Counted from the stretch's first letter, positions 20,548 to 58,791 are shown. The stretch is 64,000 nucleotides of DNA from an uncultured candidate division Zixibacteria bacterium (GCA_963735035.1 CAVTJJ010000004.1:1280001-1344000), one strand, 5' to 3'. Notes: generated by a model from the letters alone, not told the origin. Numbers and translations: made by a program.

Positions 20548-20719
20548 GTTGCCCGAGTGTCGCCTCATCGGCAAACTTCTTGACAACATCGCTTTCGACG
20601 GTACCTTACAGATGTGGCCACGTACTTAGCCACCGGTCCCACAACTCGTTGCACAGGAATGAAATCGAATTCGTCTTGTGGACAACAAGGGTTTATGGCA
20701 TAAGAAGGACACCGCTACT

Positions 20720-23539: not shown

Positions 23540-23633
23540 ACGCCAAGATGTACATAGTGTAAGTTACTATCTCTTCGACGGCGTTCCCGCAGGACACCGT
23601 GCGGAGAACGAATAGCAGAGGAAAGGGGTTGCT

Positions 23634-28480: not shown

Positions 28481-30787
28481 GTGATGATCAAATCCCATCC
28501 AAGTTTGTTTCTGCTCTTCTTCGTCGTAGGTGGCATTCTTCTATCCGACTATCTGGACGTATCCCCGCTGGTTGGTTTTGCGTTCGCTTCACTCTCGGCC
28601 GGGCTGGCCGTAATAACGCTGACCCGTCAGCGGCGAGCTTCAGCCGCAATGCTTGCGGGGTTAGCACTTGGACTGATCGCCGCGGTCAACTTCGGCCTCC
28701 AGCTTCGCGGCCTTGGACCGAACCATCTCGGCAACATTGTTCGAGAACCGCTTCTCTATGAAGTGTGTGGTCGGGTGGCCGATTGGCCGGAGTTGAAGCC
28801 GGGGCGCACGGAGATCAAGATCGATATCGATTCGCTCCTGCCCGCGACAGCGCCGGGTCAGGTCAGCCGCAAGGTGGATGGTCGTCTGCTCCTAAAGATC
28901 ACCGACACGACGACCGCATTCCAGCGCGGCGACCGACTGGCTTTTCAGGCGCGGCTCTATCCTGTTAGATCCGAAGGGCGCGAGGATTTCGGCTACGCCC
29001 GCTACCTCAATTTGCAGGACATCCATGCCCAGGCGTTTCTACCGACGGGGCTCTACATCCAAATTGATCGACGCCCGTCGGTCGGGTTCTGGCCGCTGGT
29101 AGACGGGATACGCAACGCTGTGTGCGGGAGTCTTCAGAGCGATCTTAGTCCTACCGCGTCGGCGTTGGCGCGTGGCTTTTTGATCGGCGAGACTCGAGAT
29201 ATTCCAGCGGACGTCTATGGCCGCTTTCGCGACAGCGGCACGCTGCATCTCTTGGCCGTGTCCGGAGGTAATGTCGCCTTGGTTCTGCTGTTCTTCCTCG
29301 GGTTGATGCGCCCTCTATGGCTGGGTCGGGGTGCGCGTTCTCTGGTTCTGCTCGTAGTGATAGTCGTGTTTGCCGGTGTCTCCTACGGGGACCCCTCGGT
29401 GGTAAGAGCGTGCCTGATGGCAGCGCTGGTGGTCGGCGCTCGCCTTCTGGGACGGGTGTACGACCTCAATAACATCATTGCCGTCGCCGCGCTGATAATC
29501 CTGTTGGTACAGCCGACACAGCTATTCGATATCGGCTTTCAACTGTCGTTCGCCACCGCGTGGGGGCTGATATTCTTCGTCCCACGAATTGGCCAAGCCT
29601 TCGGCCGGCTTCAGGAAAGCCGCTGGTATCGCTGGCTGGGTATGCCAATCGTAGCTTCTTTGGTGGCGCAGATCGTTTCGACGCCGTTGATACTGCTCTA
29701 TTTCGAGCGCGTTCCGTTGATATCAGTCGCCGCCAATCTTGTCATCGTGCCGATGGTTTCGGTCGGTGTGATCGCAGTCATGCTTCTTCTCGTTGCGCAT
29801 CTGGTCTGGCCGCTTCTGGGTACGATGGTAGGGAGCCTGGTCGATCTGTGGCTGCGCGGGGTACTCTCCATGCTCGATTTCTTCGGCGGGGGAGAGGTCC
29901 CGGTTTGGAAGTCAGGCCTTCTATCGAAGTCCGACTGGGGTACGTTGATAATTGTCCTGGCGTATTTCGTCATGATCCTCTTCGCGGTGGCGTTCACTCG
30001 CCGCTGGGCCAGGAAGACTCTGCTAGTATCGGTGGCCTTAACGGTCAACGTTGCGTTGGCGGTCGGTGTAATCGCTCAGTTTCGACAACCGACCGGCGAA
30101 CTCCGTATTGAGCGGATACCGGGCGGCCTGGCAGTTCTTACCTGCGACCAGAAATCCTCGAATGTCGATCTGGTAATCACCGATATGTTGTCCCGCGACG
30201 ACGGTTCATCGGGAGTGACCATATTGAACGGACTGTTGAGCAGAAACGCGGTGACCCGTCTTCGCCGCCTGGTAGTCATGAGCGCCGACTACAATGCGCT
30301 CGCCGATATTCTCCGGGTCGCTCGAACCATGGAAGTAGAGTCGGTTCTGGTCGATCGAAGTCTGGAGCGCTCAGCGGGCGATTTGCAAGTCAGGAGCGAC
30401 TCGGCGGTGTATCACGGGCCGGTCTTGTTCTTCGGGGGAAGGCTCGGTCAATCGAACGGGAAGGGCTGCTATTTGGGCGACGAGGCCGTGCGCCTGAATC
30501 TCGGCAAGCTTCAGGTTGACATCTTGAACCACCCCGACAACGCAAGCCTTCCGCCCGAGTCTCTCAGTCTATCCGGCGTCTTGATTGTTGGTAGTCGCTG
30601 GAAGCCTGAGCCTCAGGAGTGGATCGAGCGTCGCAGGGCCGGCTATGATCAGATTATCTGTGCAGCTTTTGAGCAGCCTGAGCTGACGTCCGGGCCGGAC
30701 ACGGAACTCGATCCCGATGCCGCCCCGCCGGACTACGTAATCGATCTGTCACGATCCGGGGCTCTTAAGCTAAGTTTCGATCTATAA
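28481..30787 (+). CDS. comEC: DNA uptake channel ComEC/Rec2
   Basis: OB-like DUF4131 region, FRDSGTLHLLAVSGGN, PSVVRA, DIGFQLSFAT, ANLVIVP competence-domain motifs; degenerate C-terminal MBL domain. Confidence 0.9.
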   Translation: MMIKSHPSLFLLFFVVGGILLSDYLDVSPLVGFAFASLSAGLAVITLTRQRRASAAMLAGLALGLIAAVNFGLQLRGLGPNHLGNIVREPLLYEVCGRVADWPELKPGRTEIKIDIDSLLPATAPGQVSRKVDGRLLLKITDTTTAFQRGDRLAFQARLYPVRSEGREDFGYARYLNLQDIHAQAFLPTGLYIQIDRRPSVGFWPLVDGIRNAVCGSLQSDLSPTASALARGFLIGETRDIPADVYGRFRDSGTLHLLAVSGGNVALVLLFFLGLMRPLWLGRGARSLVLLVVIVVFAGVSYGDPSVVRACLMAALVVGARLLGRVYDLNNIIAVAALIILLVQPTQLFDIGFQLSFATAWGLIFFVPRIGQAFGRLQESRWYRWLGMPIVASLVAQIVSTPLILLYFERVPLISVAANLVIVPMVSVGVIAVMLLLVAHLVWPLLGTMVGSLVDLWLRGVLSMLDFFGGGEVPVWKSGLLSKSDWGTLIIVLAYFVMILFAVAFTRRWARKTLLVSVALTVNVALAVGVIAQFRQPTGELRIERIPGGLAVLTCDQKSSNVDLVITDMLSRDDGSSGVTILNGLLSRNAVTRLRRLVVMSADYNALADILRVARTMEVESVLVDRSLERSAGDLQVRSDSAVYHGPVLFFGGRLGQSNGKGCYLGDEAVRLNLGKLQVDILNHPDNASLPPESLSLSGVLIVGSRWKPEPQEWIERRRAGYDQIICAAFEQPELTSGPDTELDPDAAPPDYVIDLSRSGALKLSFDL

Positions 30788-30828: not shown

Positions 30829-30856
30829 TAAAGTAAAGCCCGTATTCTCCCGATAA
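30829..30856 (+). promoter_or_regulatory. sigma28-like promoter of the DUF4388/mgl cluster
   Basis: TAAAG-N15-CCCGATAA. Confidence 0.6.
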
Positions 30857-30922
30857 ATACAGAGAATTGGTATGAAAACAGGATAGGTCTGCCGTTTGAC
30901 CTACGTCCAGAAAGATACCGCC

Positions 30923-32134
30923 ATGAGTCTGTCAGGAAATCTCAAGACCGTTGCCTTCTCAGATATTCTGCAGTTGCTGGCCACCGGGAAGAAATCCGGC
31001 ATGCTGGAATGCCATACCTCGACCCGTCAAAAAGAGGTAGCCTTCAAGGATGGCAACATTGTGTTCGCTTCATCGGTGAACGCCTCGGAAGACCTGCTGG
31101 GAAACATGCTCCTGAAGCGGGGGCGCATTTCCAAGACCGATCTGGAAAGAGCCATCGCTCTGCACAAGCAGACCGGCCGTCAGCTCGGCACCACTCTGAT
31201 CGACATGGGGCTGTTCGATAAGAACGAAATCGCCGAGTGTCTTAAGCTTCAGATCGAAGAGATCGTCTACAACCTGTTTTCCTGGCAGGAAGGCGATTTT
31301 GTCTTCCACGAAGGCGTTGCCCCCAGGAACGCGCCGTTCCTCGTGGAATTGGCTACTATGAGTGTCATCATGGAGGGGACGCGTCGTATAGACGAATGGC
31401 TGGAAATCCAGAAAGTACTTCCGCCCGATGACGTTCTGCTGCGCATTACCAAATCGCCCAAGTCCAACCGTGAAGAGCTCACGATGTCGCTCGATGAGTT
31501 CCGGTTATTGTCGCTTATCAATGGTGAGAGAACTCTGCCCGAGTTGATCAATCTCTCGCCGATGGGAGAATTTGTCACCTGCCGCGCCTTGTATCGTTTG
31601 ATCGTTCAGAATCTCGTGGAAGTGGCCGGCAAGTGCGAACGGGCCCAGGATGCCGAGCAGGAAGATGAAGAAGAGGCGGTGCTGAACATCGTCTTTCGCA
31701 TGTACTCAAATTGTTTTTATCAGATCCACGCCCGGGTGGAGCAGGTGCTCGGCAGCGACAACTCAAGGTACCCATCGTTCGCTTCGAAATTCCGCTCGGG
31801 TCTGACGAATTATTTCCCGGGGGTCGATCCGAAGTCGGACCTGATGCCGCCGTTCGAAAAGTTTCTCGCGTCGGTACGAACGCTGCCACCGCAGATTCGC
31901 TATCACACTCTGATGGCCTCGCTGGAACAGATGCTCTCGGAGCAGCTTCTGTTCGTATATCAGTTGCTTGGTGACGGCGTGTTTCACGACACCGCGTCCA
32001 AGGTGAAGATGGAAATATCGGGCCCCCTGGCGAGTCGCCGCGATCTGGTCAAGCGGTTCAATCTTGAGGATGATTTCTACGGCACGCTCAAACGGGCCGA
32101 CAAAATGGTTAAGCTTTTGAGAGGTTCTGTATGA
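30923..32134 (+). CDS. DUF4388 (PatA_N-like) domain protein with MshEN-like repeat and winged-helix segment
   Basis: MSLSGNLKTVAFSDILQLLATGKKSGML...LFSWQEGDFVF...MEGTRRIDEW; LLGNMLLKRGRIS...QLGTTLIDMG. Confidence 0.85.
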   Translation: MSLSGNLKTVAFSDILQLLATGKKSGMLECHTSTRQKEVAFKDGNIVFASSVNASEDLLGNMLLKRGRISKTDLERAIALHKQTGRQLGTTLIDMGLFDKNEIAECLKLQIEEIVYNLFSWQEGDFVFHEGVAPRNAPFLVELATMSVIMEGTRRIDEWLEIQKVLPPDDVLLRITKSPKSNREELTMSLDEFRLLSLINGERTLPELINLSPMGEFVTCRALYRLIVQNLVEVAGKCERAQDAEQEDEEEAVLNIVFRMYSNCFYQIHARVEQVLGSDNSRYPSFASKFRSGLTNYFPGVDPKSDLMPPFEKFLASVRTLPPQIRYHTLMASLEQMLSEQLLFVYQLLGDGVFHDTASKVKMEISGPLASRRDLVKRFNLEDDFYGTLKRADKMVKLLRGSV

Positions 32135-32493
32135 AAGCCACTATTGTAACTACCGCGCTACTTATTGCCGGGCTCGCCGATCGGGTCGATGCGGCCAACC
32201 TGGCGGTCATTGCCAGCCCGCCGGCGTTCCTGAATTTGATCGTGCTCGGCCTGGCGGTTGGGGCCATCGTAATCGGCTTGCCGATGCTTCGGACGATCAA
32301 AGGCGGATATCTGAGCCGTCCCTGGCAGTTGTTCCTCGCCGGTTTCGCATTGATGGCTCTGGCGCAACTTCTGGGACTCATCCGGACGTTGGAAATAGCG
32401 GACATCCCGATGTGGATATCTCCTGCTCTTACGGCTGTCTGTGTGGGGGCGTTTTTCTACGCCGTATTTGAGACGAAAAAGGTGCTGGGATAA
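32131..32493 (+). CDS. Small hypothetical membrane protein (signal-like N-terminus plus about 3 TM)
   Basis: ATGA overlap with the upstream gene; hydrophobic segments. Confidence 0.75.
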   Translation: MKATIVTTALLIAGLADRVDAANLAVIASPPAFLNLIVLGLAVGAIVIGLPMLRTIKGGYLSRPWQLFLAGFALMALAQLLGLIRTLEIADIPMWISPALTAVCVGAFFYAVFETKKVLG

Positions 32494-32504
32494 GCTGATT
32501 TGTG

Positions 32505-32533
32505 TTGACATAACCGCTTGGGAGATATATAAA
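32505..32533 (+). promoter_or_regulatory. sigma70-type promoter
   Basis: TTGACA-N17-TATAAA upstream of the TPR-roadblock gene. Confidence 0.55.
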
Positions 32534-32598
32534 TAACGTTACGTGAAATAGTCTCCCGGGTAACCGATTGCAAATGTTGTACTTGTGAGCAAATACCG

Positions 32599-33447
32599 AT
32601 GACGGTCAATGTCGAAATAGACAGCCGCATATTGAAGTGCCAGAAGATCTTGGAGATGGATCCCAACTCCCAGATCTTTGCGGCGCTGGCTGAGGCCTAT
32701 CGGAAGAAGGGCGAGCTTGAAAAAGCATTTCAGGTTTGCCACAGCGGACTCCGCATTCATCCGAATTACGGCGCCGCGCATCTGGTAATGGCCAAAGTCA
32801 ATCTCGATCGCGGTCTGTACGATTGGGCTGCGACCGAAGTGGAGAAAGCTCGTGAGGCCGGGGGCGACCTTCGCACAATCGAGTTGCTTTTGGCCGAGAT
32901 CAATATCTACAAGGGCGAATTTCAAGCGGCGATCAAATCCCTCAAGCGACTGTCAACCTCCGATCCGGGCAACATGCACGTGAAGCGGCTTTTGGAAATT
33001 GCGACCCGGATACCGGAAGAGCAACAGGAGCAGACCGGCGAGCCGGCGGAAACGAAATCTCCCGACCCGGCCGTGATTCCTCAAGCGGAATCACCGAACC
33101 GCATCATACCGGCGGATCTGTTGGCGGAAGCGCTTCGCATTCGCGGTGTCGAAGGCGCTCTGTTTATCAACGCCGAAGGTCTCGTGATCGAATCCCGGTG
33201 GGAAGCCGGTGTCGACCAGACCACTTGTGGCGCGGTGATGGCGGAAGTGAATACGTTCGTCGAACAGGAATTGATGAAGATATCTTTCGGACGGGTGACG
33301 ACGGTTCTAATTGAAACTTCCACCCTGGTGTTTTATATCATGATCGTTCCGGGTGGGATGTTTTTGATAGCAGGCGGAAGCGGGATCAATCTGGGTTCGT
33401 TGCGGATGAAAATGGCCACGCTGTTGGATAGGGTTCAGACCAGCTAG
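32599..33447 (+). CDS. TPR-repeat plus roadblock/LC7 domain protein
   Basis: DPNSQIFAALAEAYRKKGELEKA...HPNYGAAHLVMAKV TPRs; C-terminal GVEGALFINAEGLVIES...NLGSLRMKM roadblock. Confidence 0.85.
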   Translation: MTVNVEIDSRILKCQKILEMDPNSQIFAALAEAYRKKGELEKAFQVCHSGLRIHPNYGAAHLVMAKVNLDRGLYDWAATEVEKAREAGGDLRTIELLLAEINIYKGEFQAAIKSLKRLSTSDPGNMHVKRLLEIATRIPEEQQEQTGEPAETKSPDPAVIPQAESPNRIIPADLLAEALRIRGVEGALFINAEGLVIESRWEAGVDQTTCGAVMAEVNTFVEQELMKISFGRVTTVLIETSTLVFYIMIVPGGMFLIAGGSGINLGSLRMKMATLLDRVQTS

Positions 33448-33458
33448 GTAGGGCGCAT

Positions 33459-34463
33459 ATGGAACTGACCGGTCAAATCAATCGTCGGATCATTATCTTC
33501 TCACTGGCGGCGATCATTCTGCCACTCGTGGCGTTTCCCGCCCGGCTGGGGACTGATCTGGCCAGGGCGGCGTTCATCAACGCCCTGTACGAAGTGGTCT
33601 TTTACGGGGCCGTACTCTTTGTCTTTCACCGCCGCACCACGCTGCTAAAGCTGGTTCAGGGAGCGGGCGTTTGTCTCGTTTACCGCCTGGCTCAGGGAGC
33701 CGCCTTCGGTCTCTTGATTGCTGCGATTCATTCCATGCAATTGAAAGCCTCGTTGTCTCTGGGGATGTCCGCCTATCTGCCGGCGATCTTCTTCCAAATC
33801 ATCCTCGCGCCGTTTGCTTTGAAGCCGGCGCTCGATCAGTTGTATGAAGAAAGCACTCCCCGGCAGCGCGCTTTGAACGCGCCGGCCATGAATGACCGCG
33901 CCGACATGAGGCGGACGTCACTGGCCGTATCGAGAGACAGGTCACACCAATCTGACGAAGATTCCGTTCCTCGTGCGTTCCGACCCATGCCGCGTCCGGA
34001 CAGTGCGAACTCGTCGCGGTCCATGGAATCGTCGACCGGTCACCTTCGAATCGATCAAAATGGGTTTGATCGCGCCGTGAGATACATCGGCGAACACGCC
34101 TCGGTTCATCTGGCGGTCGTGCTCGACAACGAAGGCTTGGTGTTGGGCCATTACCGGCGGGGAAACATCGAGCCGGAAGAATGGGCGCCGCTGGCCCTGC
34201 TTCTGGTGGATGGCGGTGATCGTGTCCTGGCGCGCGGTCATCTGAACGGGCTCGAAAAGATGGATCTGGTTCTGAAAGATAAACGTCTGATCGTGGCTCG
34301 TCCCGATGGTTGTCATTTGATGGTGCTGTCCGAGAGACATGAGGATGAGCTCCTGAATATTCGTATCAATCAGTCGCTCGACATGATTAACAAGTTTGTC
34401 GCCGAGCGTTACGGCGCGAAGTTGAACCCGAACGCGGAGAGAGTACATGTACCAAGTGCTTAG
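33459..34463 (+). CDS. Membrane protein (about 4 TM) plus disordered linker plus roadblock/LC7 domain
   Basis: Hydrophobic N-terminal ~125 aa; SVHLAVVLDNEGLVLG...LLNIRINQ roadblock-like C-terminus. Confidence 0.75.
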   Translation: MELTGQINRRIIIFSLAAIILPLVAFPARLGTDLARAAFINALYEVVFYGAVLFVFHRRTTLLKLVQGAGVCLVYRLAQGAAFGLLIAAIHSMQLKASLSLGMSAYLPAIFFQIILAPFALKPALDQLYEESTPRQRALNAPAMNDRADMRRTSLAVSRDRSHQSDEDSVPRAFRPMPRPDSANSSRSMESSTGHLRIDQNGFDRAVRYIGEHASVHLAVVLDNEGLVLGHYRRGNIEPEEWAPLALLLVDGGDRVLARGHLNGLEKMDLVLKDKRLIVARPDGCHLMVLSERHEDELLNIRINQSLDMINKFVAERYGAKLNPNAERVHVPSA

Positions 34464-34790
34464 CAATCTTAACAAGACTCCCGGGGTCACCGGATCGATG
34501 GTAGTCGGTAACGACGGCATCGTGATTGCCGCCGACATGGCTTCCGGTTTCGAGGGAGAAACGGTCGGGGCCCTGGCCGCTTCGATCACTTCCAACATCC
34601 AGAAATCGCTGGATCGGCTGGAGGCTACTCCCTGGGCTCAGGTGACAATCGAAGCCGACAGCGCCAAGTTGTTCTTTACCGATGCCGGTCTCGGTATACT
34701 GGTGGTCACTACCGAGAAAGTGGTGAACATCGGTTTGATCCGTCTGGAGATAAGAATGCGATCGACAAAATAAAACTGCCGTCCTAAACG
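34447..34790 (+). CDS. Stand-alone roadblock/LC7 protein (MglB/MglC-like); C-terminus probably affected by an indel, so the true end is uncertain
   Basis: GVTGSMVVGNDGIVIA...VGALAAS...NIGLIRLEI; adding one A at ~34751 gives KNAIDKIK, the expected final helix. Confidence 0.8.
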
Positions 34791-34815
34791 GAGAGAGGAA
34801 TAGGACCGCTCAACT

Positions 34816-35895
34816 ATGGTATCAATCAACTACTCGGCCCGCGAGGTCTGCTGCAAGATCGTCTATTACGGTCCGGGACTGTCCGGCAAGACGACCAATC
34901 TGCAGTACGTCCATTCCCGGGTGCCGCAGAACACGCGAGGCAAGCTGATCTCGCTGGCGACCGAGGCCGACCGGACGCTGTACTTTGATTTCCTGCCGAT
35001 CAACATCGGCACGATCAACGACTTCCAGGCGAAGTTCCAGTTGTACACCGTCCCCGGCCAGGTCTACTACAACGCCACCCGCAAGCTGGTCTTGCGCGGC
35101 GTCGACGGTCTCGTCTTTGTGGCCGACAGTCAGCCCGACAAGATGGACGAGAACATCGAATCATTGGCCAACCTCGAAGATAACCTTCGGGAATACGGCT
35201 ACGACATGGCCCTGTTGCCGCTGGTGATACAGTACAACAAGCGCGATTTGCCCGGTGTCCTGAGTCTCGATGAACTCAACGCGCGGCTCAATCCGAGAGG
35301 GGTGCCGTTCTTCGAGGCGTCCGCTCCACAGGGCAAGGGCGTGTTCGATACTCTTAAGTTGATCATCAAACTCGTGCTCGACAAAGCCAAGGCGACCGGG
35401 GCTTCGGCGATGCCTCGTCGCACTGAAGCTGTCGCGGCGCCACCCGCCGCCGAGGCGCCGTATCCGTCGGTCGAACGAGTTCCGATCATGGCCCATGTCG
35501 AATCGGCTCCGGTGCAGATTCCGAAGCCGACACCACAACCGGTGGCCGCTTCGGCCAACTGGGAAGCGACCGCACAGGCGACTCCGACGGCCTGGGCCGG
35601 CGAGCATGAGGCTCATCCGCATGATCCGACCGCTTCCGAAGAGATGGGGGTTCGGCCGTATCCAGGCACGGATCGTGGCCACACCGGTGAGCTGCGTCGT
35701 ACCGGCCGTATAGGGCTGGGTGCGGTTACAAAGGAACTTCCCGCTGATTCGATAGGAAAGAATGTTAACTCCGAGGGTGCCGACCAGGTCCCGGGGATGT
35801 CATCGATGAACACACCGCAGATGGCTCCCTCTCTCAGGCGTCGCGGTCTGGCCAAGAAGCGCGGCTTCTTCAGACGCCTGTTCGGAATGAAATAG
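34816..35895 (+). CDS. mglA: MglA Ras-like GTPase with long C-terminal extension
   Basis: KIVYYGPGLSGKTTNL, DRTLYFDFLP (intrinsic Arg finger), TVPGQVYY, NKRD; ~165-aa Pro/Ala-rich tail ending KKRGFFRRLFGMK. Confidence 0.95.
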   Translation: MVSINYSAREVCCKIVYYGPGLSGKTTNLQYVHSRVPQNTRGKLISLATEADRTLYFDFLPINIGTINDFQAKFQLYTVPGQVYYNATRKLVLRGVDGLVFVADSQPDKMDENIESLANLEDNLREYGYDMALLPLVIQYNKRDLPGVLSLDELNARLNPRGVPFFEASAPQGKGVFDTLKLIIKLVLDKAKATGASAMPRRTEAVAAPPAAEAPYPSVERVPIMAHVESAPVQIPKPTPQPVAASANWEATAQATPTAWAGEHEAHPHDPTASEEMGVRPYPGTDRGHTGELRRTGRIGLGAVTKELPADSIGKNVNSEGADQVPGMSSMNTPQMAPSLRRRGLAKKRGFFRRLFGMK

Positions 35896-35913
35896 ATAGG
35901 TTTGGAGGACGTT

Positions 35914-36399
35914 ATGTCTGATGACGGTTTGATCATTTACGAAGAAGAAATCGCAACCATTGACACGCTTCTCAAGAAGATGTTGAAGGGGGCCGAGGCC
36001 AAGTGCGCGCTCCTCGTGGACAAGGATGGCCATCTGATTACGCGCCAGGGCTTCACCCATTCGCTCGACACCACGGCGCTTGCGGCGCTTCTGGCCGGGT
36101 CGTTCGCCTCGACGAAAGAGATCGCGCGTCTGGTCGGTGAGCCGGAATTCTCCGTGTTGTTTCACCAGGGCAAGAAAGACCACATCCACATGTCGATTGT
36201 GGGCGAACGGTCCATTCTGGTGGTGATCTTCGACGATCGCACCACGATCGGTATGGTGCGTCTGTATGCCAAGGAGACGTCGGAAGAATTGTCCCGGGTG
36301 TTTCGCACCCATACTGAGCGCAAACAGCCGAACGAGGCCCTGAGCGACGATTTCTCGGACAAGACGCAGGAAAGGCTCAACGACATTTTTCAGGACTGA
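35914..36399 (+). CDS. mglB: MglB roadblock GTPase-activating protein
   Basis: LIIYEEE...LVDKDGHLI...DTTALAALLAG...IFDDRTTIGMVRL and acidic C-terminal helix, closely paralleling Myxococcus MglB; GGAGG RBS. Confidence 0.93.
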   Translation: MSDDGLIIYEEEIATIDTLLKKMLKGAEAKCALLVDKDGHLITRQGFTHSLDTTALAALLAGSFASTKEIARLVGEPEFSVLFHQGKKDHIHMSIVGERSILVVIFDDRTTIGMVRLYAKETSEELSRVFRTHTERKQPNEALSDDFSDKTQERLNDIFQD

Positions 36400-36480
36400 G
36401 TGACGCTTGTGTCCGTCCATTGCGGGTGCGTGGCTTCACGTGCAAACCGGTTACCGCTTGAATAAATGTAAAGATCACCT

Positions 36481-38185
36481 ATGTCTGTCGAACTCAGCGC
36501 CATTCTCGTAAAGGCAGGGAAGATTTCTCAGGAACAGGCCAATGCGGCGCTGGAACGTTCCAAGATATCCAAAGAGCAATTCTCTAAAGTCCTGGTCGAT
36601 ATGGGGGCGGTCACCTCGGAAGAAGAGGTCACCAGTTTTGTCGGCAAGCATCTCAAGATCGGCGCCCTGAGGCTGAGCGACGTCGAACTTAATCCCGAAA
36701 TCGTCAAGCTGATTCCGCTTGATATCGCCCGTAAATTCAAAGTCATCGCGATCAGCAAGATCGGCAAGACTCTACTCGTGGCGATCAGCGATCCGAACAA
36801 TATCTACGTCCTCGACGCCATCAAGTTCATAACCGGCTGCAATGTCCAGCCGGCCATCGCGCCCGAAAAAGCAATCGAAAAGGCGATCGAGCAGTATTAC
36901 ACCGATGCTGGCGCTCTCTCGGAAATCGTCAAGGGGATGGAAGACGATCCCGATCTCGAAGTCGTATCCGTGGAGGACGGGCCGTCGGAAACCGACCTGA
37001 TGTCGCAGATCCAGGACAAACCGCTGGTCAAGCTGGTCGATTCGATCATCGGCGATGCCATCCGGATGGGTGCTTCCGATATTCACTTCGAGATGTACGA
37101 AAAGCGGATACGTGTTCGGTATCGTATCGACGGTGAACTTCGGGAGATGGCCCCGCTGCCGTTCAAGTATCGGGCGGCGATTGTCTCGCGTATCAAGATC
37201 ATGGCCGAACTCGACATCTCGGAACGCCGCCTGCCGCAGGACGGACGCATCAAGATCAAGATCACCGGCCGCACGGTCGATCTTCGCGTCTCGGTCCTGC
37301 CGACAATTTTCGGCGAAAAAGTCGTGATGCGAATTCTCGATCCGAAGGCGCTGAAGATCGACATGACCCAACTCGGTTTCCGCCAGGAAGATCTCGACAA
37401 ATTTGCGGACAAGATTCACTCGCCCGTACGGGATCATTCTCGTGACCGGGCCGACCGGTTCGGGTAAAACGACGACGCTGTATTCGGCGCTTCAGCAGTT
37501 GAACACGATCGACGTGAATATCATGACCGCCGAGGACCCGGTGGAGTTCAACTTCGAGGGCATCAACCAGGTGGCGGTGAAATCGGAAATCGGCCTGACC
37601 TTTGCCGCGGCGCTTCAGGTCTTTCTTGCGACAGGACCCGGATATCATCATGGTCGGTGAAATTCGTGACTCCGAAACGGCCGAGATTGCCATCAAGGCC
37701 GCCCTTACCGGACACCTCGTGTTTTCGACCCTGCACACCAACGACGCTCCGTCGTCGGTCACGCGTCTTATCGATATGGGCGTGCCGAACTATCTCGTGG
37801 CCTCGGCAACCCAGTTGATCATGGCTCAGCGTATGTGCAAGAAGATCTGCCAGAAGTGCAAGGAAGAGGTCAACCTGACCGTCCGGAGCAGGTCGAGACG
37901 CCTGAAGATGCCCCCGGACATGCTCAAAGGTATCCGGGCATTTCAAGGGAAAGGGATGCAGCGCGTGCAACGATACCGGAAAGTCGGGACGAACCGGTAT
38001 CTACGAAGTTATGCCTATCACCTCGGCCCTTGAGGAATTGATCCTACAGGAAAGCCTCTGACACCGAGATACGCAGACTCGCCATGGAGGAGGGGATGTT
38101 TTCACTTCGTATGGCGGCAGTCGATAAAATGAAGCAGGGCATGATCAGTATCGAAGAAGTTTTTGCGGTCACTGGGACCAACTAA
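36481..38185 (+). CDS. pilB: Type IV pilus extension ATPase PilB (read across several single-base indels)
   Basis: [61 protein letters not shown] and CxxC pairs spread over consecutive frames; indels near 37423, 37617, 37880-37945 and 38050. Confidence 0.92.
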
Positions 38186-38224
38186 GTCCGGCCACTTCTT
38201 GGTTTTCCGGCAGAATCCGCTGCC

Positions 38225-38291
38225 CATCAATCACTTATCATTGACAAGTAGGCTCTTTTCCGGTCAAGATTCGGCGATTTCTAGCCGATAT
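38225..38291 (+). promoter_or_regulatory. sigma28-like promoter of pilT-pilC with IHF-like site
   Basis: TCAAG-N15-GCCGATAT (38264-38291); CATCAATCACTTA (38225-38237) is close to the IHF consensus. Confidence 0.6.
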
Positions 38292-38350
38292 ACTGACAGT
38301 GGACCTTTATAGGTGTGAAGACTGTCCTTTTTCGGAATAGGAGATTGTCA

Positions 38351-39446
38351 ATGGTTTCGTTGCGCGAGCTTGCTGGATCAAATGGTTACGTATGGGGGCA
38401 TCCGACTTGCACTTGACCGTCGGGTCGCCGCCGGTCGTGCGTGTCGATGGCAAGCTTCAGAGAATGACCAGTACGACGTGCTCACCGGTGAAGAAACCAA
38501 GAAGCTCGCTTACTCCATGTTGAACGAGAAGCAGAAGCTCAAATTCGAACAGAATTGGGAACTGGATTTCTCGTTCGGTATCGAACAGTATGAGCCGTTT
38601 TCGCTGCAACATCTTCATGCAGCGCGGTAACGTGGCGGTCGTGCTGCGGCAGATTCCGTATAAGATGCAAGACCTTCGATCGAACTCGGCCTGCCCAAAG
38701 TGATCGCCGAATTCTCCAAGCTGCCGCGCGGTCTGGTGCTGGTAACCGGTCCGACCGGCTCGGGCAAGTCCACCACCCTGGCGGCGATTATCGACAAGAT
38801 CAACAAAGAGCGCCCGGTTCATATCATTACGGTGGAAGACCCGATTGAGTATTTGCACCGCCATCAGTTGGCGTTGATCAATCAGCGTGAAGTGTACTCC
38901 GACACCCCGTCGTTTGCGTCGGCGCTGAAGTACGCTCTCCGCGAGGATCCGGACGTAGTGCTGGTCGGTGAAATGCGCGATCTGGAAACGATCGAAGCGG
39001 CCCTTTCGATTTCGGAGACGGGTCACCTGGCGTTCGCCACGCTGCATACCAACTCCTGCGCCGAGACGATCAACCGTATCGTCGACGTATTCCCGACCAA
39101 CCAGCAGGAGCAGATTCGGGTGACGCTGTCGTTCACGCTACAGGCGGTGGTCTCACAGGTGTTGATCCCCAAGATCGGGGGCGGGCGAGTTCTGGCCATG
39201 GAGATCATGGTCGCCACGCCGGCGATGCGGGCGATCATTCGCGACGACAAGATCCACCAGTTGTACTCGATGATTCAGTCCGGACAGAAATACGGCATGA
39301 AGACGATGAACCAGTCGTTGTCGGAACTATACCAGGGTGGCAAGATTTCGCTGAACGATGCCATGGGCACAGTCACAACCCGCAGGAACTGGGCGAGATG
39401 CTTTCGCGTCAGAAAGCGCCGGCCTACACTTGATGCGGCGACGTGA
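38351..39446 (+). CDS. pilT: Type IV pilus retraction ATPase PilT (read across several indels; exact stop uncertain)
   Basis: Corrected N-terminus MVSLRELLDQMVTYGASDLHLTVGSPP..RVDG; GPTGSGKSTT, EDPIE, ALREDPD, GEMRD, TGHL..TLHT, AMRAIIRD (AIRNLIRE-like); AGGAG RBS. Confidence 0.92.
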
Positions 39447-39472
39447 GATAGGAACGAGAAAGGAATAGAGAT

Positions 39473-40672
39473 ATGCCAGTTTTCGAGTACAAAGGCAAGA
39501 CGCTGGCCGGGGCGGCCGTCCAGGGGATGATGAAAGCGAATACCCGCGCCGACCTTGAGCGGGTCCTCCGTCAGAACCGCGTCCTCGTATCTTCGATCAG
39601 CAAGCAGGCTCCCGAGATCAACATCAAGTTCGGCACCGGTATCAAGCGGGTCGAAATCTCCCGGTTTACGCGTCAGTTCGCGACCATGATCGGCGCCGGG
39701 TTGCCGATGGTGCAGTGTCTGGAGATTCTCGGGTCCCAGACCGAGAACAAGGAATTGTCCAAGATCGTAAACCAGGTTCGCGACGGCGTCCAGGGCGGTG
39801 CCACGCTTTCCGACGCCATGAAACGTCACCCCAAAATTTTCGATGAGTTGTACACGAACATGGTCGAAGCGGGTGAAGTCGGCGGTGCCCTCGATTCGAT
39901 TCTGGTCCGACTGGCCGTCTATCGCGAGAAATCGGATCAGCTCATCCGCAAAGTAAAAGGCGCTATGGTTTATCCGACCGTGGTTATGGCCGTCGCCGGA
40001 CTGGTGACCTTCGCCATGCTCACGTTTGTCGTGCCTACATTCGCCAAGATGTTCTCCGGCCTCGGCGCCGACCTTCCGGAACCGACCAAGATAGTGCTGG
40101 GGATATCGAATTTCCTGAAGGCCAATATTCTGTACATCTTTCTCGGTGTCGCCGGATTGTTCGTGGCCTTCATCTACTGGAAGAAAACGCCCACGGGCGG
40201 TATGGCCGTCGACAAGGGTATGTTGAAAGTCCCGGTTCTCGGCAACCTGATTCGCAAGTCGGCCGTCGCCCGCTTCACCCGTACGCTGGCGACCCTGCTG
40301 GCTTCAGGTGTCTCGATTCTGGAAGCGCTCGATATCACCGCCAAGACGGCCGGTAACCGGGTCGTGGCGAGAGCTATCAATCGCTCGGTGCTGGCCATTG
40401 CCGAAGGCGATACCATCACCGGTCCGTTGAAGGCGTCCGGCGTGTTCCCTCCGATGGTGACTCAGATGATCGGCGTTGGTGAAAAGACCGGCGGATTGGA
40501 CGACATGCTGAACAAGATCGCCGATTTCTACGACGAAGAAGTGGACGAGGCTGTCAGCGCTCTGACGTCGGTTATTGAGCCGATTATTATCTGTTTCCTG
40601 GGTGTAGTGATCGGTGGCATCATGATTGCCATGTATCTGCCGATGTTCGACATCATCGGGAAATTCAATTGA
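39473..40672 (+). CDS. pilC: Type IV pilus platform protein PilC (GspF family)
   Basis: FTRQFATMIGAGLP, AGEVGGAL, AMVYP, GEKTGGLDDML, AMYLPMF. Confidence 0.96.
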   Translation: MPVFEYKGKTLAGAAVQGMMKANTRADLERVLRQNRVLVSSISKQAPEINIKFGTGIKRVEISRFTRQFATMIGAGLPMVQCLEILGSQTENKELSKIVNQVRDGVQGGATLSDAMKRHPKIFDELYTNMVEAGEVGGALDSILVRLAVYREKSDQLIRKVKGAMVYPTVVMAVAGLVTFAMLTFVVPTFAKMFSGLGADLPEPTKIVLGISNFLKANILYIFLGVAGLFVAFIYWKKTPTGGMAVDKGMLKVPVLGNLIRKSAVARFTRTLATLLASGVSILEALDITAKTAGNRVVARAINRSVLAIAEGDTITGPLKASGVFPPMVTQMIGVGEKTGGLDDMLNKIADFYDEEVDEAVSALTSVIEPIIICFLGVVIGGIMIAMYLPMFDIIGKFN

Positions 40673-40711
40673 CCGCCGGAAGACCGCTGCGATCTTAAGA
40701 GATAAAGGAAG

Positions 40712-40738
40712 AGCGGCCCGCCGGTGCGGGCCGCTTTG
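40712..40738 (+). terminator. Hairpin, possible terminator between pilC and pilS
   Basis: AGCGGCCCGC-CGGT-GCGGGCCGCT followed by a short T run. Confidence 0.5.
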
Positions 40739-40743
40739 CTTAA

Positions 40744-42456
40744 ATGGACAAAACGCGCGTCCCGAACCAGCTCGGACTTTTTCTCCCGCTCCGATTGGCG
40801 ACGTACATGGTGCTTATTGCCATTGCGGTCGCCTGGATGCACGATCCGAAATATCTGCATTTTCCGGTTATCATCTATTCGCTCGTGACCCTGGCCTTTG
40901 CGGTCGGACTTGCCCTGGAACGGAAACTAGGCCTGAAGGGTGTTACGCGAGTCTTGACCGCCTTACAGTTCCTGATCGAAATCACGTTGGAATCCGGCAT
41001 CATCTACGTTACCGGCAACATCCACTCGCCATTTTCGGCGCTCTTCGTACTGACAATTGTTTCGGCAGCTCTGGTGTATCGGCTGGTGGGAACATTGGTG
41101 GTGGCGTCGATTGTCTCAGTCGCCTATGCTTTTGTCATCTGGCTCGGTCTTACCCAGGGCGCGGGTGACCTGAGCGTCCAGGCACTGAAGACGATATTCT
41201 CTTCGAATGACCTGGCCTTCTACGGCATACTGCTGCACATCCTGATATTCTATCTGACCGCCTTCGTCTCTGGATACCTGGCCGAACGACTGAGCAGCAA
41301 CGTGCGACAACTGCAGGACGCGTCCAGCGCTTTGAAACGAGCTCAGTTGGAGACGGACGACATCCTTCGCCATCTGAATTCAGGTCTGCTTACGGTGGAT
41401 GCTTCAGGTCATGTCATCTACTTCAACCGGGCTGCGGAAAAGATCCTCGGTTATCACGAAGAAAATGTGAGAGGAATGCCCTGTGTCGACGTCTTCTCCG
41501 AGCGAATGCCTGAATTGGCGGCCTGCCTGATGGACGGTGTCAGGTCACGCATGGGGTATCCTCGTCGTGAGCTAGAGATTAGGAATCAGGCCGCGAAGCA
41601 GGTGCCGCTGGGGTTGTCCACTTCGATTCTGACCGAGGACTCAGGCGAACTTCGGGGCGTCATAGCCATATTTTCGGATCTGACCGAAGCAAAGGAACTG
41701 GAAGCCAAGGTTCGCAAGAGCGACCGTCTGGCGGCGGTAGGCGAGCTGTCGGCATCGATTGCGCATGAAATCCGCAATCCGTTGGCCGCGATCTCGGGAT
41801 CGGTCGAGTTGCTCTCGCGCGAACTGGCCCTGGACGGGGAGAACCAGCGGTTGATGGCTCTCATTATGAAAGAATCCCAGCGTCTCAATCGCATTCTGAC
41901 CGATTTCCTGACCTACGCACGAATGGAGCGTCCAGCCTACAACAAGGTTGAGTTGTGTCATATCGTCGCCGATATCCGCGAGCTTCTCAAACGCCACGAA
42001 GCGGTGCCGGACAATGTGACCCTGCGCTTTGACACCGACGAGTCGTTTGCGTATGTGGTTGGGGACGAAGGGCTCGTGCGACAATTGGTTATGAATCTCG
42101 CCCTCAATGCCTGCGAGTCGTTCGACGGAAAATCCGGGGAAGTGGTCTTCCGTTTGGGGAGGATGGCCGGTAGCGGGACGGTCTGGCTGAGCGTCCGTGA
42201 CAACGGCCCCGGGATTGATCCGAAAATAGTCGATAAGATCTTCCAACCCTTCTTTTCCACCAAGAAAACCGGCACTGGTCTGGGGCTGGCGATTGTCCAT
42301 CGCATCTGCAACGCCCTGGGATTGAGGCTTCATCTCCACACCCGGCCCGGCCAGGGGACGACTTTCACGGTCGCTTTCACCAGCTACGCTCCTGGGAGCC
42401 CTGTCGCCGAAGGTCAGGTTCCTGATCCAGACTTCACCGAAATCGGGGTCCACTAG
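40744..42456 (+). CDS. pilS: PilS-like membrane sensor histidine kinase with PAS domain
   Basis: About 6 TM including TG..HSPFS, PAS, H box AHEIRNPL, N box NLALNA, DNGPG, FQPFFSTK, GTGLGL; located after pilC. Confidence 0.85.
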   Translation: MDKTRVPNQLGLFLPLRLATYMVLIAIAVAWMHDPKYLHFPVIIYSLVTLAFAVGLALERKLGLKGVTRVLTALQFLIEITLESGIIYVTGNIHSPFSALFVLTIVSAALVYRLVGTLVVASIVSVAYAFVIWLGLTQGAGDLSVQALKTIFSSNDLAFYGILLHILIFYLTAFVSGYLAERLSSNVRQLQDASSALKRAQLETDDILRHLNSGLLTVDASGHVIYFNRAAEKILGYHEENVRGMPCVDVFSERMPELAACLMDGVRSRMGYPRRELEIRNQAAKQVPLGLSTSILTEDSGELRGVIAIFSDLTEAKELEAKVRKSDRLAAVGELSASIAHEIRNPLAAISGSVELLSRELALDGENQRLMALIMKESQRLNRILTDFLTYARMERPAYNKVELCHIVADIRELLKRHEAVPDNVTLRFDTDESFAYVVGDEGLVRQLVMNLALNACESFDGKSGEVVFRLGRMAGSGTVWLSVRDNGPGIDPKIVDKIFQPFFSTKKTGTGLGLAIVHRICNALGLRLHLHTRPGQGTTFTVAFTSYAPGSPVAEGQVPDPDFTEIGVH

Positions 42457-42529: not shown

Positions 42530-44329
42530 ATGCGCATTTCGAATCGATTAGTCTTCTGCTTCCTGGCCTGTGCTGTGATCTTGGTAACCTGTGGGGGGCC
42601 GCCCAAAGTACAATGGGAGACCCTCGACCGCTACAATTTCGACGTGGCAGAGGCTTCGCCCAATTTTCGTATGCCGGCCAAGCATCTGTATGAGTTGATG
42701 TATTTCTCCAGAGTTGCGGCGGCCGGAGGACCGGTGACTGATTCGATGATCCGTGCTTTCCGCGACAGTGTGCTCGTCGATTCCTTCATGGTGATGTCGG
42801 TCGATAAGTACGATTTGCACTCCAACTGGTACCAGTACCGCGACTACCGAGATCGATCCAACGCCACCTTGAGACAGGCCTTTTGGGATGACAGGGTCGG
42901 CTCCAAGATTGTTGTCGATACCCAGGAAGTAATCAAATATTACAAAGACCATCCCGATGAGTTTTCGTATCCAGAGCAGGCTGACATTTATCACATACTA
43001 AGCAGTCCGCTGGGATTCCGTCAGGGGCCCGATTCGGTCCTGGTTGACCGTTGGACCCGTGAGGACCTGTCCCGATTCTCGGAAGTTTACGCCTGGCGTC
43101 TGTACCAGCTTCTGCTGTACGGCGAGGCTTTTGAAAACGTCGCCCATAATTACTCTCATGACCTTCAGTCGCGTGATCGAGGCGGTCATCTCGGCTGGGT
43201 GAAGCGGGGAGTCTACGTCGACCCCTTCGATTCTATCGCTTTTTCATTGAAAGACGGTGATTTCTCCAAGCCTTACAAGGACGATGACGGCTGGCACATA
43301 ATCCTTCGTGCTCGCTATAATCCCGCCGGCCCGCTTCCTTTGGATACTCCTTCGGTCTACGTGAAGGCCCGCAACGCCGTCTTCAGCGTCAAAGGAACGG
43401 CTATGGCCGCTCAAATAATGGACAGTCTACACAAGGCCGCAACTGTCACGATCAATCCAATTGTTCTGACCGATACTGTCATCTACCTGATCGATGACTC
43501 GGTGTGGGCAGCCGTGATCAACGGTACCGATACGATAGATGCCCTTCGACTGAAAGGTTTCGAAGAGGATTATCGGCGCAGCTACGGGGTCGGCAACACG
43601 CCTCCGGATATTCGCCGGCTGATGGTACTTCACGCCACCGGCCCGGTTCTGGTAGAAGAAGCGGCGCGTCGTCTGGGATTGGACACGTTGCCCGCGCAGG
43701 TCGAAGCTGATCGTCAGGTGTGGAAAGAAACAGTCAAAGCGCTCATGGTCGCCAATCTATATACCAATGACAAGTGGGCCCCGACCGACTCCGCCATCGA
43801 GCAGTATTATCAGGACCATTTCGACGAATACAACCCGGACCCTCATTTCAAGGCCGAGCAACTGGTAGTACAGGACCGCGAATTGGCCGAGTTCCTCCGG
43901 GAGCAGGTCAATTCGGGATTCACACTGAAGTACTTATATGACTACTACGCTAAGGGCGAAGGGTACGACATCAAGTACGAGGAACTAGGCACCGTCAATA
44001 AGGGTACCGTGGATTCGGCTCTTTACGAGGCCATGCGGCGTACCCACGAGTATCGTTTCACCAAGGTAGTCAAGACGCCCCGCGGATATCATATTGCCCG
44101 GATTCTGGAGCGGAATTACGCCCAGCCGTTGGAAGTCGTTCGGGCGAATATCCGAACCATATTGGTCGACGTACACCGCCACCAATACTGGAACGAATAC
44201 AGGGATAGTATCTTCCAGGCCTGGGATGTCAAATTCCCCGGTACTTTGCCGCCTTTTGAATTGCCCAGGCTTTCTCTGAGGAACCATAAACGGACGTTGC
44301 CCAGATTACCCGTTGCTGACTTCGAGTGA
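42530..44329 (+). CDS. PpiC/parvulin-type peptidyl-prolyl isomerase lipoprotein (SurA/PrsA-like)
   Basis: Lipobox ILVT-C; HIL...FENVAHNYSHD..SRDRGGHLGW...F...AFSL...GWHII; second degenerate parvulin domain. Confidence 0.85.
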   Translation: MRISNRLVFCFLACAVILVTCGGPPKVQWETLDRYNFDVAEASPNFRMPAKHLYELMYFSRVAAAGGPVTDSMIRAFRDSVLVDSFMVMSVDKYDLHSNWYQYRDYRDRSNATLRQAFWDDRVGSKIVVDTQEVIKYYKDHPDEFSYPEQADIYHILSSPLGFRQGPDSVLVDRWTREDLSRFSEVYAWRLYQLLLYGEAFENVAHNYSHDLQSRDRGGHLGWVKRGVYVDPFDSIAFSLKDGDFSKPYKDDDGWHIILRARYNPAGPLPLDTPSVYVKARNAVFSVKGTAMAAQIMDSLHKAATVTINPIVLTDTVIYLIDDSVWAAVINGTDTIDALRLKGFEEDYRRSYGVGNTPPDIRRLMVLHATGPVLVEEAARRLGLDTLPAQVEADRQVWKETVKALMVANLYTNDKWAPTDSAIEQYYQDHFDEYNPDPHFKAEQLVVQDRELAEFLREQVNSGFTLKYLYDYYAKGEGYDIKYEELGTVNKGTVDSALYEAMRRTHEYRFTKVVKTPRGYHIARILERNYAQPLEVVRANIRTILVDVHRHQYWNEYRDSIFQAWDVKFPGTLPPFELPRLSLRNHKRTLPRLPVADFE

Positions 44330-58192: not shown

Positions 58193-58720
58193 ATGGTCAT
58201 GAACCGGAAGAACGAAACACCGTCGATTCAGAATGGGTTTACCCTGATTGAACTGATGGTGGTCGTGCTCATTTTTGGCGTCTTGTCGGCTCTGGCCGCT
58301 CCAACGTTTCAGCGGTCGTATGACGGCTTTAAGTTTCACGAGGGCGAACGTTCCGTCACTTCCTCATTGAAGAAGGCCCGCTCTTTCTCCGTGAGCAGCA
58401 AGGCGCCGGTGGGGGTTCATTTCAATAGCGGCTCCCGCGTTGTTACGATATTCAAGAATACGACCAATCCGTCGCAGACCTCGTTTGAGGACACCGACTC
58501 CGTCTATTCGTCAGATACCCTCCCGTCCGATTTCTCCTATGTCTATGCCGACATGGGAAACAGCGCGGTTGTCTTTCAGCCCAACGGGTCTGCAACGTAC
58601 TCTGGATCGGGAATGGTATTTTTGTTAGGCGAAACCAACAAACTGACGGCTACTTTCACTATTAGCATCCTGGCTTCTACAGGTCGGGTCAGCTCGTACT
58701 CTCATTTCTACAACTGGTAG
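58193..58720 (+). CDS. FimT/GspH-like minor pilin (type IV prepilin)
   Basis: Class III signal peptide G|FTLIELMVVVLIFGVL with E5; ARS..VS, VFQPNG, TGRV GspH-like motifs. Confidence 0.88.
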   Translation: MVMNRKNETPSIQNGFTLIELMVVVLIFGVLSALAAPTFQRSYDGFKFHEGERSVTSSLKKARSFSVSSKAPVGVHFNSGSRVVTIFKNTTNPSQTSFEDTDSVYSSDTLPSDFSYVYADMGNSAVVFQPNGSATYSGSGMVFLLGETNKLTATFTISILASTGRVSSYSHFYNW

Positions 58721-58762
58721 TAGGAGCCTTCCGGCCCCAAAAAAGGCCAAAATATAGCGTTT

Positions 58763-58791
58763 GACCTCCCCGTCCCCCGGGGAGGTCGTTT
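58763..58791 (+). terminator. Hairpin/terminator after the minor pilin gene
   Basis: GACCTCCCCG-TCCCC-CGGGGAGGTC followed by GTTT. Confidence 0.6.

Follow-up and report, generated by a model that had tools for sequence, protein, structure and literature searches.

A seven-gene cassette beside the type IVa pilus motor genes of Zixibacteria encodes a candidate membrane-tethered MglA/MglB switch

A stretch of 64,000 nucleotides (nt) from an uncultured candidate division Zixibacteria bacterium (GCA_963735035.1, CAVTJJ010000004.1:1280001-1344000; hereafter the window) carries a cassette of seven genes between comEC and the type IV pilus genes pilB-pilT-pilC-pilS. The cassette encodes, in order, a PATAN (DUF4388) protein, a small membrane protein, a Roadblock domain fused to tetratricopeptide repeats (TPR-Roadblock), a Roadblock protein with four predicted transmembrane helices (4TM-Roadblock), a small stand-alone Roadblock, MglA and MglB. 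We estimate at about 60% the probability that these genes form a membrane-tethered MglA/MglB switch of the Myxococcus type, coupled to the type IVa pilus motor. The parts can be identified, their linkage to pilB-pilT-pilC-pilS is fixed, and the C-terminal tail of MglA is conserved.

An original prediction, made from the sequence alone, had listed seven co-oriented genes between comEC and pilB; all seven were found on the + strand and the gene list is correct. The same prediction ran the feature to position 42456, which is the end of the pilS-like kinase gene and not of the module. Coordinates below are positions in the whole window, in which all cassette and pil genes lie on the + strand.

28481..30787, + strand: comEC, DNA-uptake channel (Pfam Competence, 185 bits, and DUF4131)
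30923..32134, + strand: PATAN (DUF4388) protein, longest open reading frame (ORF) from TTG 30896 (DUF4388, 108 bits; NF053729, 48.8 bits)
32131..32493, + strand: small membrane protein of 120 amino acids (aa), three hydrophobic segments
32599..33447, + strand: TPR-Roadblock, 282 aa (TPR_19, TPR_14 and others; Robl_LC7, 27 bits, cut-off 23)
33459..34463, + strand: 4TM-Roadblock, 334 aa (predicted by structure model and Foldseek)
34447..34773, + strand: small stand-alone Roadblock, 108 aa (Robl_LC7, 52.8 bits)
34816..35895, + strand: MglA, whole gene, 359 aa (weak Arf/Ras family matches; alignment to solved MglA)
34816..35400, + strand: MglA GTPase domain, residues 1-195 (alignment with 5ymx and 3t12)
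35401..35895, + strand: MglA C-terminal tail, a low-complexity linker (about 150 aa) leading to the 13 terminal residues KKRGFFRRLFGMK (35854-35892) and the stop
35902..36399, + strand: MglB, 165 aa (Robl_LC7, 55 bits; alignment to Myxococcus xanthus MglB, 129 bits)
36481..38185, + strand: pilB, type IVa extension ATPase with MshEN N-domain, interrupted (TIGR02538, T2SSE and MshEN pieces in three frames)
38351..39433, + strand: pilT, retraction ATPase, interrupted (TIGR01420, 354.7 bits on the C-terminal piece)
39473..40672, + strand: pilC, platform protein, intact (T2SSF, 217.8 bits; NF052606, 482 bits)
40744..42456, + strand: pilS-like sensor histidine kinase, intact (6TM_PilS, PAS, HisKA, HATPase_c)

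The comEC gene forms the upstream boundary of the cassette in every locus examined and is separated from the PATAN gene by 136 nt. The PATAN frame of 412 aa is counted from TTG 30896, and alignment of 12 orthologues places the conserved start at ATG 30923. The start of the small membrane protein gene overlaps the PATAN stop by 4 nt, and the small Roadblock gene shares its first 17 nt with the end of the 4TM-Roadblock gene. Between the mglA stop and the mglB start there are 7-19 nt, and mglB ends 81 nt before pilB on the same strand.

The order comEC-PATAN-small membrane protein-TPR-Roadblock-4TM-Roadblock-Roadblock-MglA-MglB-pilB-pilT-pilC-pilS was the same in all 12 relatives' loci. A larger set of public loci comprised the best 80 of 163 stretches encoding a relative of the PATAN protein, nearly all titled Zixibacteria or Zixiibacteriota and some labelled otherwise. 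All 80 keep the order as far as each reaches, and 48 of them reach pilS; the others stop at contig ends, as judged by locus length, or at gaps of 100 N in pilB (L086 and L098). The 80 include at least five of the first 12 loci, so the two sets are not independent. Sampling of the most divergent families gave five loci, and in all five the order was unchanged. Searched with a 4TM-Roadblock profile, 277 of the phylum's 285 genomes gave a match (195 of 198 high-quality genomes; 128 of 130 genera), and the position of the cassette between comEC and pilB was invariant across the 20 families sampled. Conservation of the module beside the pil genes was thus borne out by synteny and, with one gene order throughout the related loci examined, the arrangement is far beyond chance.

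One family departs from this pattern. The 4TM-Roadblock profile matched none of its three genomes; the family has an orthologous pilC, and MglA was not found in G053 or G054. In the locus from G053 (L105; G053:C30:48000-67999), comEC stands directly before pilB-pilT-pilC-pilS with a gap of about 290 nt and no cassette. Since this family lacks the whole block, the seven genes behave as one cassette that is either present or absent, and since it keeps comEC and pilBTC, the module is an accessory regulator rather than a part of the pilus machine. The cassette-free arrangement is either ancestral or the outcome of a clean deletion of the seven genes together. A further genome, G006, which is 96% complete, shows no cassette and no close orthologues of pilB or pilC.

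The GTPase at the centre of the cassette is closely related to MglA of M. xanthus. Residues 3-197 align without gaps with the solved M. xanthus protein (5ymx; 266 bits, E 4e-78), and the match to Thermus thermophilus MglA (3t12), likewise gapless, scores 238 bits. Group 1 MglA proteins are marked by a P-loop, an intrinsic arginine finger, a TxxGQ motif (in which Thr takes the place of the DxxG aspartate and is followed by the catalytic Gln) and NKxD. The window protein keeps these signatures as the P-loop GPGLSGKTT, the arginine of DRTL, TVPGQ and NKRD, column for column with 5ymx. A cognate mglB gene is adjacent here and in all related loci. Judged by its sequence, the protein is a bona fide group 1 prokaryotic Ras-like GTPase.

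MglA is 359 aa long rather than about 195 aa; the GTPase domain ends near residue 195 and is followed by a conserved, disordered tail of about 164 residues. Of 31 relatives, 29 gave a match to a long MglA, their open frames spanning 321-422 aa, and because relatives keep the tail it is not a chance open frame. From 93 related loci we obtained 73 complete mglA genes encoding 68 distinct proteins. All 68 are 324-415 aa long, with low-complexity tails of variable length (129-220 aa). The ends of these tails, by contrast with their length, are strikingly conserved, being basic and aromatic in 68 of 68 full-length proteins. In five more divergent families the tail is kept as well (349-476 aa in total); its end differs in sequence and is again basic and aromatic. 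Direct translation showed the MglA of locus L019 to be intact, at 407 aa.

The membrane-targeting tag of Escherichia coli MinD is KGFLKRLFGG (PMC5471200), which KKRGFFRRLFGMK resembles, both standing at the extreme C-terminus of their proteins. The last 11 residues of MglA have a net charge of +4 and a hydrophobic moment of 0.45, the same as that of the MinD tag. In MglA some 150 aa of disordered linker stand between this end and the Ras-like GTPase domain. We infer that KKRGFFRRLFGMK is a putative membrane-targeting amphipathic helix that would tether MglA to the membrane.

MglB also proved to be a close relative of the Myxococcus protein, so that the proposed identities of both MglA and MglB hold (266 and 129 bits, respectively). 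Residues 10-164 match residues 5-158 of M. xanthus MglB over its full length, and the match to T. thermophilus MglB (1j3w) scores 69 bits. Robl_LC7 is matched at 55 bits and NCBIfam labels the protein MglB-like; the Thermus-based equivalog NF052242 scores 90 bits, under its cut-off of 200. The likely start is ATG 35914, because the matches of relatives begin at residue 2, 5 or 11 of the annotated frame. By this resemblance, MglB is presumed to be the GTPase-activating protein (GAP) of MglA.

Besides MglB, the cassette encodes three further Roadblock proteins, giving the four distinct Roadblock domains that had been claimed: three by Pfam and the fourth, in the 4TM protein, by structure model and Foldseek. 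In the family searches DUF4388, TPR and Robl_LC7 were matched as expected, the small Roadblock at 52.8 bits and the TPR-fused one at 27 bits. The TPR-Roadblock consists of TPR repeats over residues ~1-140, a linker, and the Roadblock domain at residues 173-253. The closest solved relatives of the small Roadblock are Asgard Roadblocks (7yh1, E 2e-10). It has no special likeness to MglC, which scores E 0.79 against E 0.89 for MglB, and dynein and Ragulator Roadblocks resemble it no less than MglC does.

The 4TM-Roadblock is far more divergent in sequence. The full protein had no Pfam or NCBIfam match, and when the C-terminal 144 aa of six orthologues were searched against Pfam, Robl_LC7 was matched in one of the six, at 14 bits and below the cut-off. 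BLASTP with the small Roadblock gave nothing, hhalign of the same two proteins gave E 3e-4, and a profile search of solved structures placed dynein Roadblocks at the top (E 0.01). An AlphaFold (AF2) model built with 13 orthologues has a predicted local distance difference test score (pLDDT) of about 90 at residues 200-322, over which the order is alpha-beta-beta-alpha-beta-beta-beta-alpha. The top Foldseek matches of this domain are LAMTOR2/p14, Asgard Roadblocks and MglB (E ~1e-7; TM ~0.8, target-normalized). It is the structure model alone that settles the predicted identity of this fourth Roadblock. The N-terminal third of the protein has four hydrophobic segments, predicted to be membrane helices by the model and by hydropathy, and a disordered linker of about 65 residues (132-198) joins the membrane and Roadblock parts.

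A single pairing was modelled, that of 4TM-Roadblock residues 196-334 with the small Roadblock, using a 13-row alignment for each. The ipSAE scores were 0.82, 0.69 and 0.82, as compared with 0.00 for the best of three controls; the mark applied to such scores is reached by 116 of 157 solved complexes and by 2 of 215 mismatched pairs. At least 84% of the contacts were common to the runs, and the pLDDT of the partner was at least 82. The modelled interface is formed by helix 2 and strand 3 of both domains, the usual interface of Roadblock dimers. The model supports a heterodimer of the 4TM-Roadblock and the small Roadblock.

The PATAN protein is well conserved, with a mean column identity of 72% among 12 orthologues. 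Its match to PF14332 is near full length (profile positions 1-121 of 122; residues 13-168 including an insertion; 108 bits), and it also matches NF053729, an MshE-related motif for cyclic di-GMP (c-di-GMP), at 48.8 bits against a cut-off of 38. In the model the strands of the PATAN domain are broken by a helical insertion, residues 166-254 are disordered, and a confident all-helical domain forms the C-terminus. The insertion is of the MshEN_N four-helix type and spans residues 67-119 (numbered from TTG 30896). Its model superposes on Vibrio cholerae MshE-N bound to c-di-GMP (5htl_B) with Z 6.5 and a root-mean-square deviation of 1.7 A over 59 aligned residues (34% identity), and it also superposes on GSPII-B of PilF. 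The MshEN motif consists of two copies of RLGxx(L/V/I)(L/V/I)xxG(L/V/I)(L/V/I)xxxxLxxxLxxQ with a five-residue joiner (PMC5013675). This 24+5+24 layout is present in residues 67-119, LLGNMLLKRGRISKTDLERAIALHKQTGRQLGTTLIDMGLFDKNEIAECLKLQ; apart from its first position, the conserved positions of the second motif fit. The C-terminal helical domain had no Foldseek match at E <= 0.001 and no usable Atlas match, and a wide search (VIA) returned generic helical matches with Z <= 7.8, below the level that is meaningful for helical folds. For the small membrane protein no Pfam match was found, and it is weakly conserved, with tblastn matches in 10 of 12 relatives' loci.

From these parts a working scheme can be proposed. 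The long flexible tail of MglA, with its terminal MinD-like amphipathic, polybasic helix, would keep the protein at the cytoplasmic membrane, and MglB would switch it off. The 4TM-Roadblock and the small Roadblock would form a membrane-anchored heterodimer platform, which might place or counteract MglB, or load MglA, as MglC/RomR-RomX or Ragulator do. MglA-GTP would engage the TPR-Roadblock, as an SgmX-like adaptor, and/or the PATAN protein, acting on PilB/PilC; this step is proposed because of precedents in SgmX of M. xanthus and in PixE/PatA-type proteins of Synechocystis. Such engagement would permit pili to extend at a particular place, c-di-GMP may enter as a further signal through the helical insertion of the PATAN protein, and twitching or DNA uptake could be the output. 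The idea of a polarity or localization switch for pili, as first put forward, therefore stands as regards its parts and their tight, wide linkage to the pil motor genes; the GAP and guanine-nucleotide exchange factor (GEF) activities, the contact with PilB and the polarity are what we infer from them.

Several observations weigh against this scheme. The cassette is missing from one family (G053, G054) that keeps pilB-pilT-pilC-pilS; pili can thus do without it. The slot of the 4TM-Roadblock is only about 400 nt long in two loci, each from a divergent family (L107, 10956-11360, and L109, 7671-8021); since these slots match the Roadblock part alone, the membrane anchor is not universal. The membrane-targeting role proposed for the MglA end is drawn from sequence likeness alone. 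The result of the complex prediction may reflect mere likeness to solved Roadblock dimers, because many of these are already available. In the PATAN insertion, L67 and Q96 replace Arg at the first position of the two MshE-type motifs, an invariant R95 lying one place earlier, and the first half ends in H90 rather than in glutamine. Given these departures from the motif, it is plausible, though not assured, that the PATAN protein binds c-di-GMP. The switch may also have other partners, and the source organisms are uncultured. Finally, pilB and pilT are not open frames in the deposited assembly.

The order pilB-pilT-pilC-pilS after the module was as predicted. Comparison of pilB and pilT with the intact genes of a genome of the same genus (G002) identified 13 indel events, of which 12 are insertions, 12 lie within 37423-38682 and most are outside homopolymers. 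In pilB there are six insertion events, at 37423, 37617, 37882 (2 nt), 37904, 37956 and 38046. In pilT there are six insertion events, at 38369, 38388, 38470 (2 nt), 38589, 38667 and 38682, and one deletion of 1 nt at 39370. All pieces of the frames match TIGR02538 or TIGR01420 strongly. In the broken stretches, with gap columns excluded, mismatches to G002 were 0.09, 0.05 and 0.43-0.48 at codon positions 1, 2 and 3, respectively. The pattern is the same in the unaffected parts of pilB and pilT and in the intact MglB and pilC genes, and because the third-position bias equals that of these intact neighbours there is no sign of relaxed selection. The other window genes scanned are full length, with pilC, pilS and all cassette genes intact. 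The source genome (3.6 Mb) is in six contigs. When all of it was scanned for stretches lacking long ORFs, the pilB region went unflagged, because chance ORFs on the opposite strand cover it.

Similar interruptions were seen elsewhere. Loci from other metagenome-assembled genomes (MAGs) in few contigs have frame breaks in pilB, pilT and pilC (L016, identical to L079), in pilS (L069) and in comEC (L074), and in L089 pilB is in two frames. Among the loci covering each gene, pilB is intact in 63 of 67 and pilT in 61 of 63 (the window included and one record counted twice). Scaffold gaps of 100 N lie inside pilB in two MAG chromosomes (L086, 15726-15825; L098, 17211-17310). An apparent loss of pilT-pilC after pilB in these two records was set aside, the gap inside pilB making them uninformative. 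Among the 80 loci, many of the contigs built from short reads stop within pilB or shortly behind it. Since scaffold gaps and contig ends recur there, pilB is an assembly breakpoint. We consider it highly probable that the breaks in pilB and pilT are an assembly consensus error at the most conserved genes of the block rather than decay, because no decay is visible in the codon-position patterns. Annotation of this assembly should not take the seeming loss of pilB and pilT for a loss of pili.

The alternative, that pilB and pilT are true pseudogenes here and the cassette a stranded regulator that possibly serves another secretion-type ATPase, takes the 13 frame-breaking indels as deposited. Candidate ATPases for it are available: the genome (G000) has three further intact genes of the T2SSE family, with open frames of 490, 585 and 403 aa (matches at C2:134111-135253, C4:1615636-1616784 and C4:571770-572582), which suggests further secretion or pilus systems. 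However, 12 of the 13 events are insertions and tightly clustered, divergence from G002 is still concentrated at third positions as in the intact neighbours, pilC, pilS and the whole cassette are intact, and other MAG records have frame breaks and scaffold gaps in these same conserved genes. We regard this as the least probable of the explanations weighed here. Slightly better placed, although still improbable, is the view that the cassette is a general switch for cell polarity or for another motility (gliding, the division site or the envelope), with its adjacency to pil reflecting inherited gene order. MglA of M. xanthus does control gliding motility as well, the neighbourhoods of group 1 MglA genes vary widely (Wuichet and Sogaard-Andersen, PMC4316618), and one family keeps its pil genes without the cassette. 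This view does not sit easily with a comEC/pilB position that is invariant across 20 families, with MglB lying 81 nt before pilB on the same strand, or with PATAN and TPR partners whose links to PilB are documented in other phyla.

A DNA-uptake pilus acting with ComEC, as opposed to surface motility, might instead be the object of control. This is a variant of our proposal as to output and not as to mechanism, and we give it the same low standing as the general switch. It draws on the presence of comEC upstream in every locus reaching that far and on its adjoining pilB where the cassette is missing. On the other hand, comEC and the PATAN gene are 136 nt apart, known competence regulators are absent, and the retraction ATPase, the PilS-type kinase and pilA-pilMNO in the window fit a general type IVa pilus. 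A bolder extension of the proposed MglA/MglB switch is that a Ragulator-like logic has arisen in a bacterium, independent of polar landmarks. An MglA anchored by its own hypervariable linker and membrane helix, much as in the eukaryotic design of an anchored GTPase with a Roadblock platform, would be served by the membrane Roadblock heterodimer and the TPR-Roadblock as exchange factor or scaffold, MglB would oppose them, and a PATAN adaptor reading c-di-GMP would gate the pilus motor. We think this unlikely, if somewhat less so than the three alternatives above.

Among known systems the cassette is nearest to the polarity module of M. xanthus (MglA, MglB, MglC, RomR/RomX, RomY and SgmX). MglA and MglB are close relatives with their signatures kept, and the two systems are alike in having an extra Roadblock paralogue beside MglB, a TPR protein and PilB as the presumed target. 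MglA of M. xanthus recruits SgmX, a TPR protein through which PilB reaches the pole (PMC11580455). The Zixibacteria genes differ in forming one block joined to pilB-pilT-pilC, in having mglA before mglB, in an MglA tail of about 164 aa with a membrane-targeting-like end, and in three extra Roadblocks, of which one has four predicted transmembrane helices and another is joined to 3-4 TPRs. SgmX, with its 14 TPRs, is without a Roadblock (PMC11580455), whereas the window protein combines about 140 aa of TPR with a Roadblock; the TPR-Roadblock is thus not of SgmX-type architecture, and its function may be analogous.

MglA and MglB of T. thermophilus (3t12 and 1j3w) are the same GTPase/GAP pair by sequence, at 238 and 69 bits. 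The solved Thermus chains are of 198 and 163-165 aa, and Thermus MglA has no long tail. We know of no accessory Roadblocks for the Thermus pair, nor of its being described as fused to a pilus motor operon. The layout of the Zixibacteria MglA tail instead recalls eukaryotic Ras/Rho proteins, in which a hypervariable region carries a polybasic anchor.

A loose analogy with eukaryotic Ragulator (LAMTOR) had been drawn and is not empty, because the model supports one Roadblock heterodimer on a membrane anchor; any effect on MglA, which in the Rag-Ragulator system corresponds to service of a small GTPase by anchored Roadblock heterodimers, would be an extension of that model. The best structural matches of the 4TM-Roadblock domain are LAMTOR2/p14, and the modelled heterodimer pairs by the same helix-2/strand-3 interface. 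In contrast to Ragulator, the cassette shows no sign of a LAMTOR1 homologue, its predicted anchor being a four-helix membrane domain in the same chain, and the GTPase is MglA rather than a Rag protein with its own Roadblock domain. The likeness to Ragulator is one of design by analogy and not of membership.

PixE of Synechocystis binds PilB1 by way of its PATAN domain, while the N-domain of PilC is bound by PatA-type regulators, which are located at the membrane (bioRxiv 10.1101/2021.06.11.447907). The window protein has the PATAN domain in common with these cyanobacterial regulators (PixE, PixG) and is encoded together with pilus motor genes; it differs from them in lacking a receiver domain and in having an MshEN_N-like insertion as well as a long C-terminal domain made of helices. 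PATAN genes have been noted in the vicinity of some mglA genes of groups 1 and 5 (Wuichet and Sogaard-Andersen, PMC4316618), and the same paper cites Makarova 2006 for MglB-PATAN neighbourhoods; in the parts of that text consulted, no mention was seen of a link to pilB or of extra Roadblocks. The actinobacterial conservon (CvnA-D) was considered and rejected, there being no CvnA-type kinase or CvnC-like gene among the cassette genes, and MglA belonging to group 1 by its likeness to Myxococcus.

In the literature searched, which left subscription journals largely outside, no account of this block under Zixibacteria MglA or type IV pili was found. The papers listed included nothing on a membrane-tethered MglA and, judged by titles and abstracts, no description of this PATAN-MglA-PilB block. 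The suggestion that the system is undescribed agrees with this outcome. We conclude that this strongly conserved, as yet unstudied cassette represents a variant form of the MglA/MglB polarity module and not a novel type of system.

Some features of the surrounding DNA were also recorded. A perfect 10-bp GC-rich hairpin (nine GC pairs) lies at 40712-40735, between pilC and the pilS-like kinase gene, and may be a terminator or attenuator that splits the motor genes from pilS. Promoter-like sites numbered six, as compared with a mean of 7.7 in shuffled sequence, and the promoter and terminator scan gave no operon boundaries except this hairpin. In the window there is no pilR beside the pilS-like kinase gene. 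A 599-aa protein with two PPIC-type rotamase domains is encoded after pilS (42530-44329), as it is in 10 of 12 relatives' loci. The region 58193-63219 contains a pilin gene with an N-terminal methylation motif, pilM, pilN, pilO and an ORF of 573 aa without a Pfam match. With the pilin-pilMNO genes about 16 kb beyond pilS, the remaining pilus machinery is close by and not contiguous. Upstream, at 20678-26396, two adjacent genes encode very large M28-peptidase proteins of 953 and 920 aa.

MglA/MglB is the model for how a Ras-like switch sets bacterial polarity, and it is understood mainly in one organism, in which the genes are scattered. Here a whole phylum keeps the switch, three extra Roadblocks, a PATAN adaptor and the pilus motor together, which names the likely partners and offers a compact set for reconstitution. 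Two features, if confirmed, would be new for the MglA family: a GTPase tethered to the membrane by its own tail, as eukaryotic Ras is, and a membrane-anchored Roadblock pair, as in Ragulator. A tethered GTPase together with an anchored Roadblock pair would bear on GTPase-Roadblock signalling as it existed before eukaryotes.

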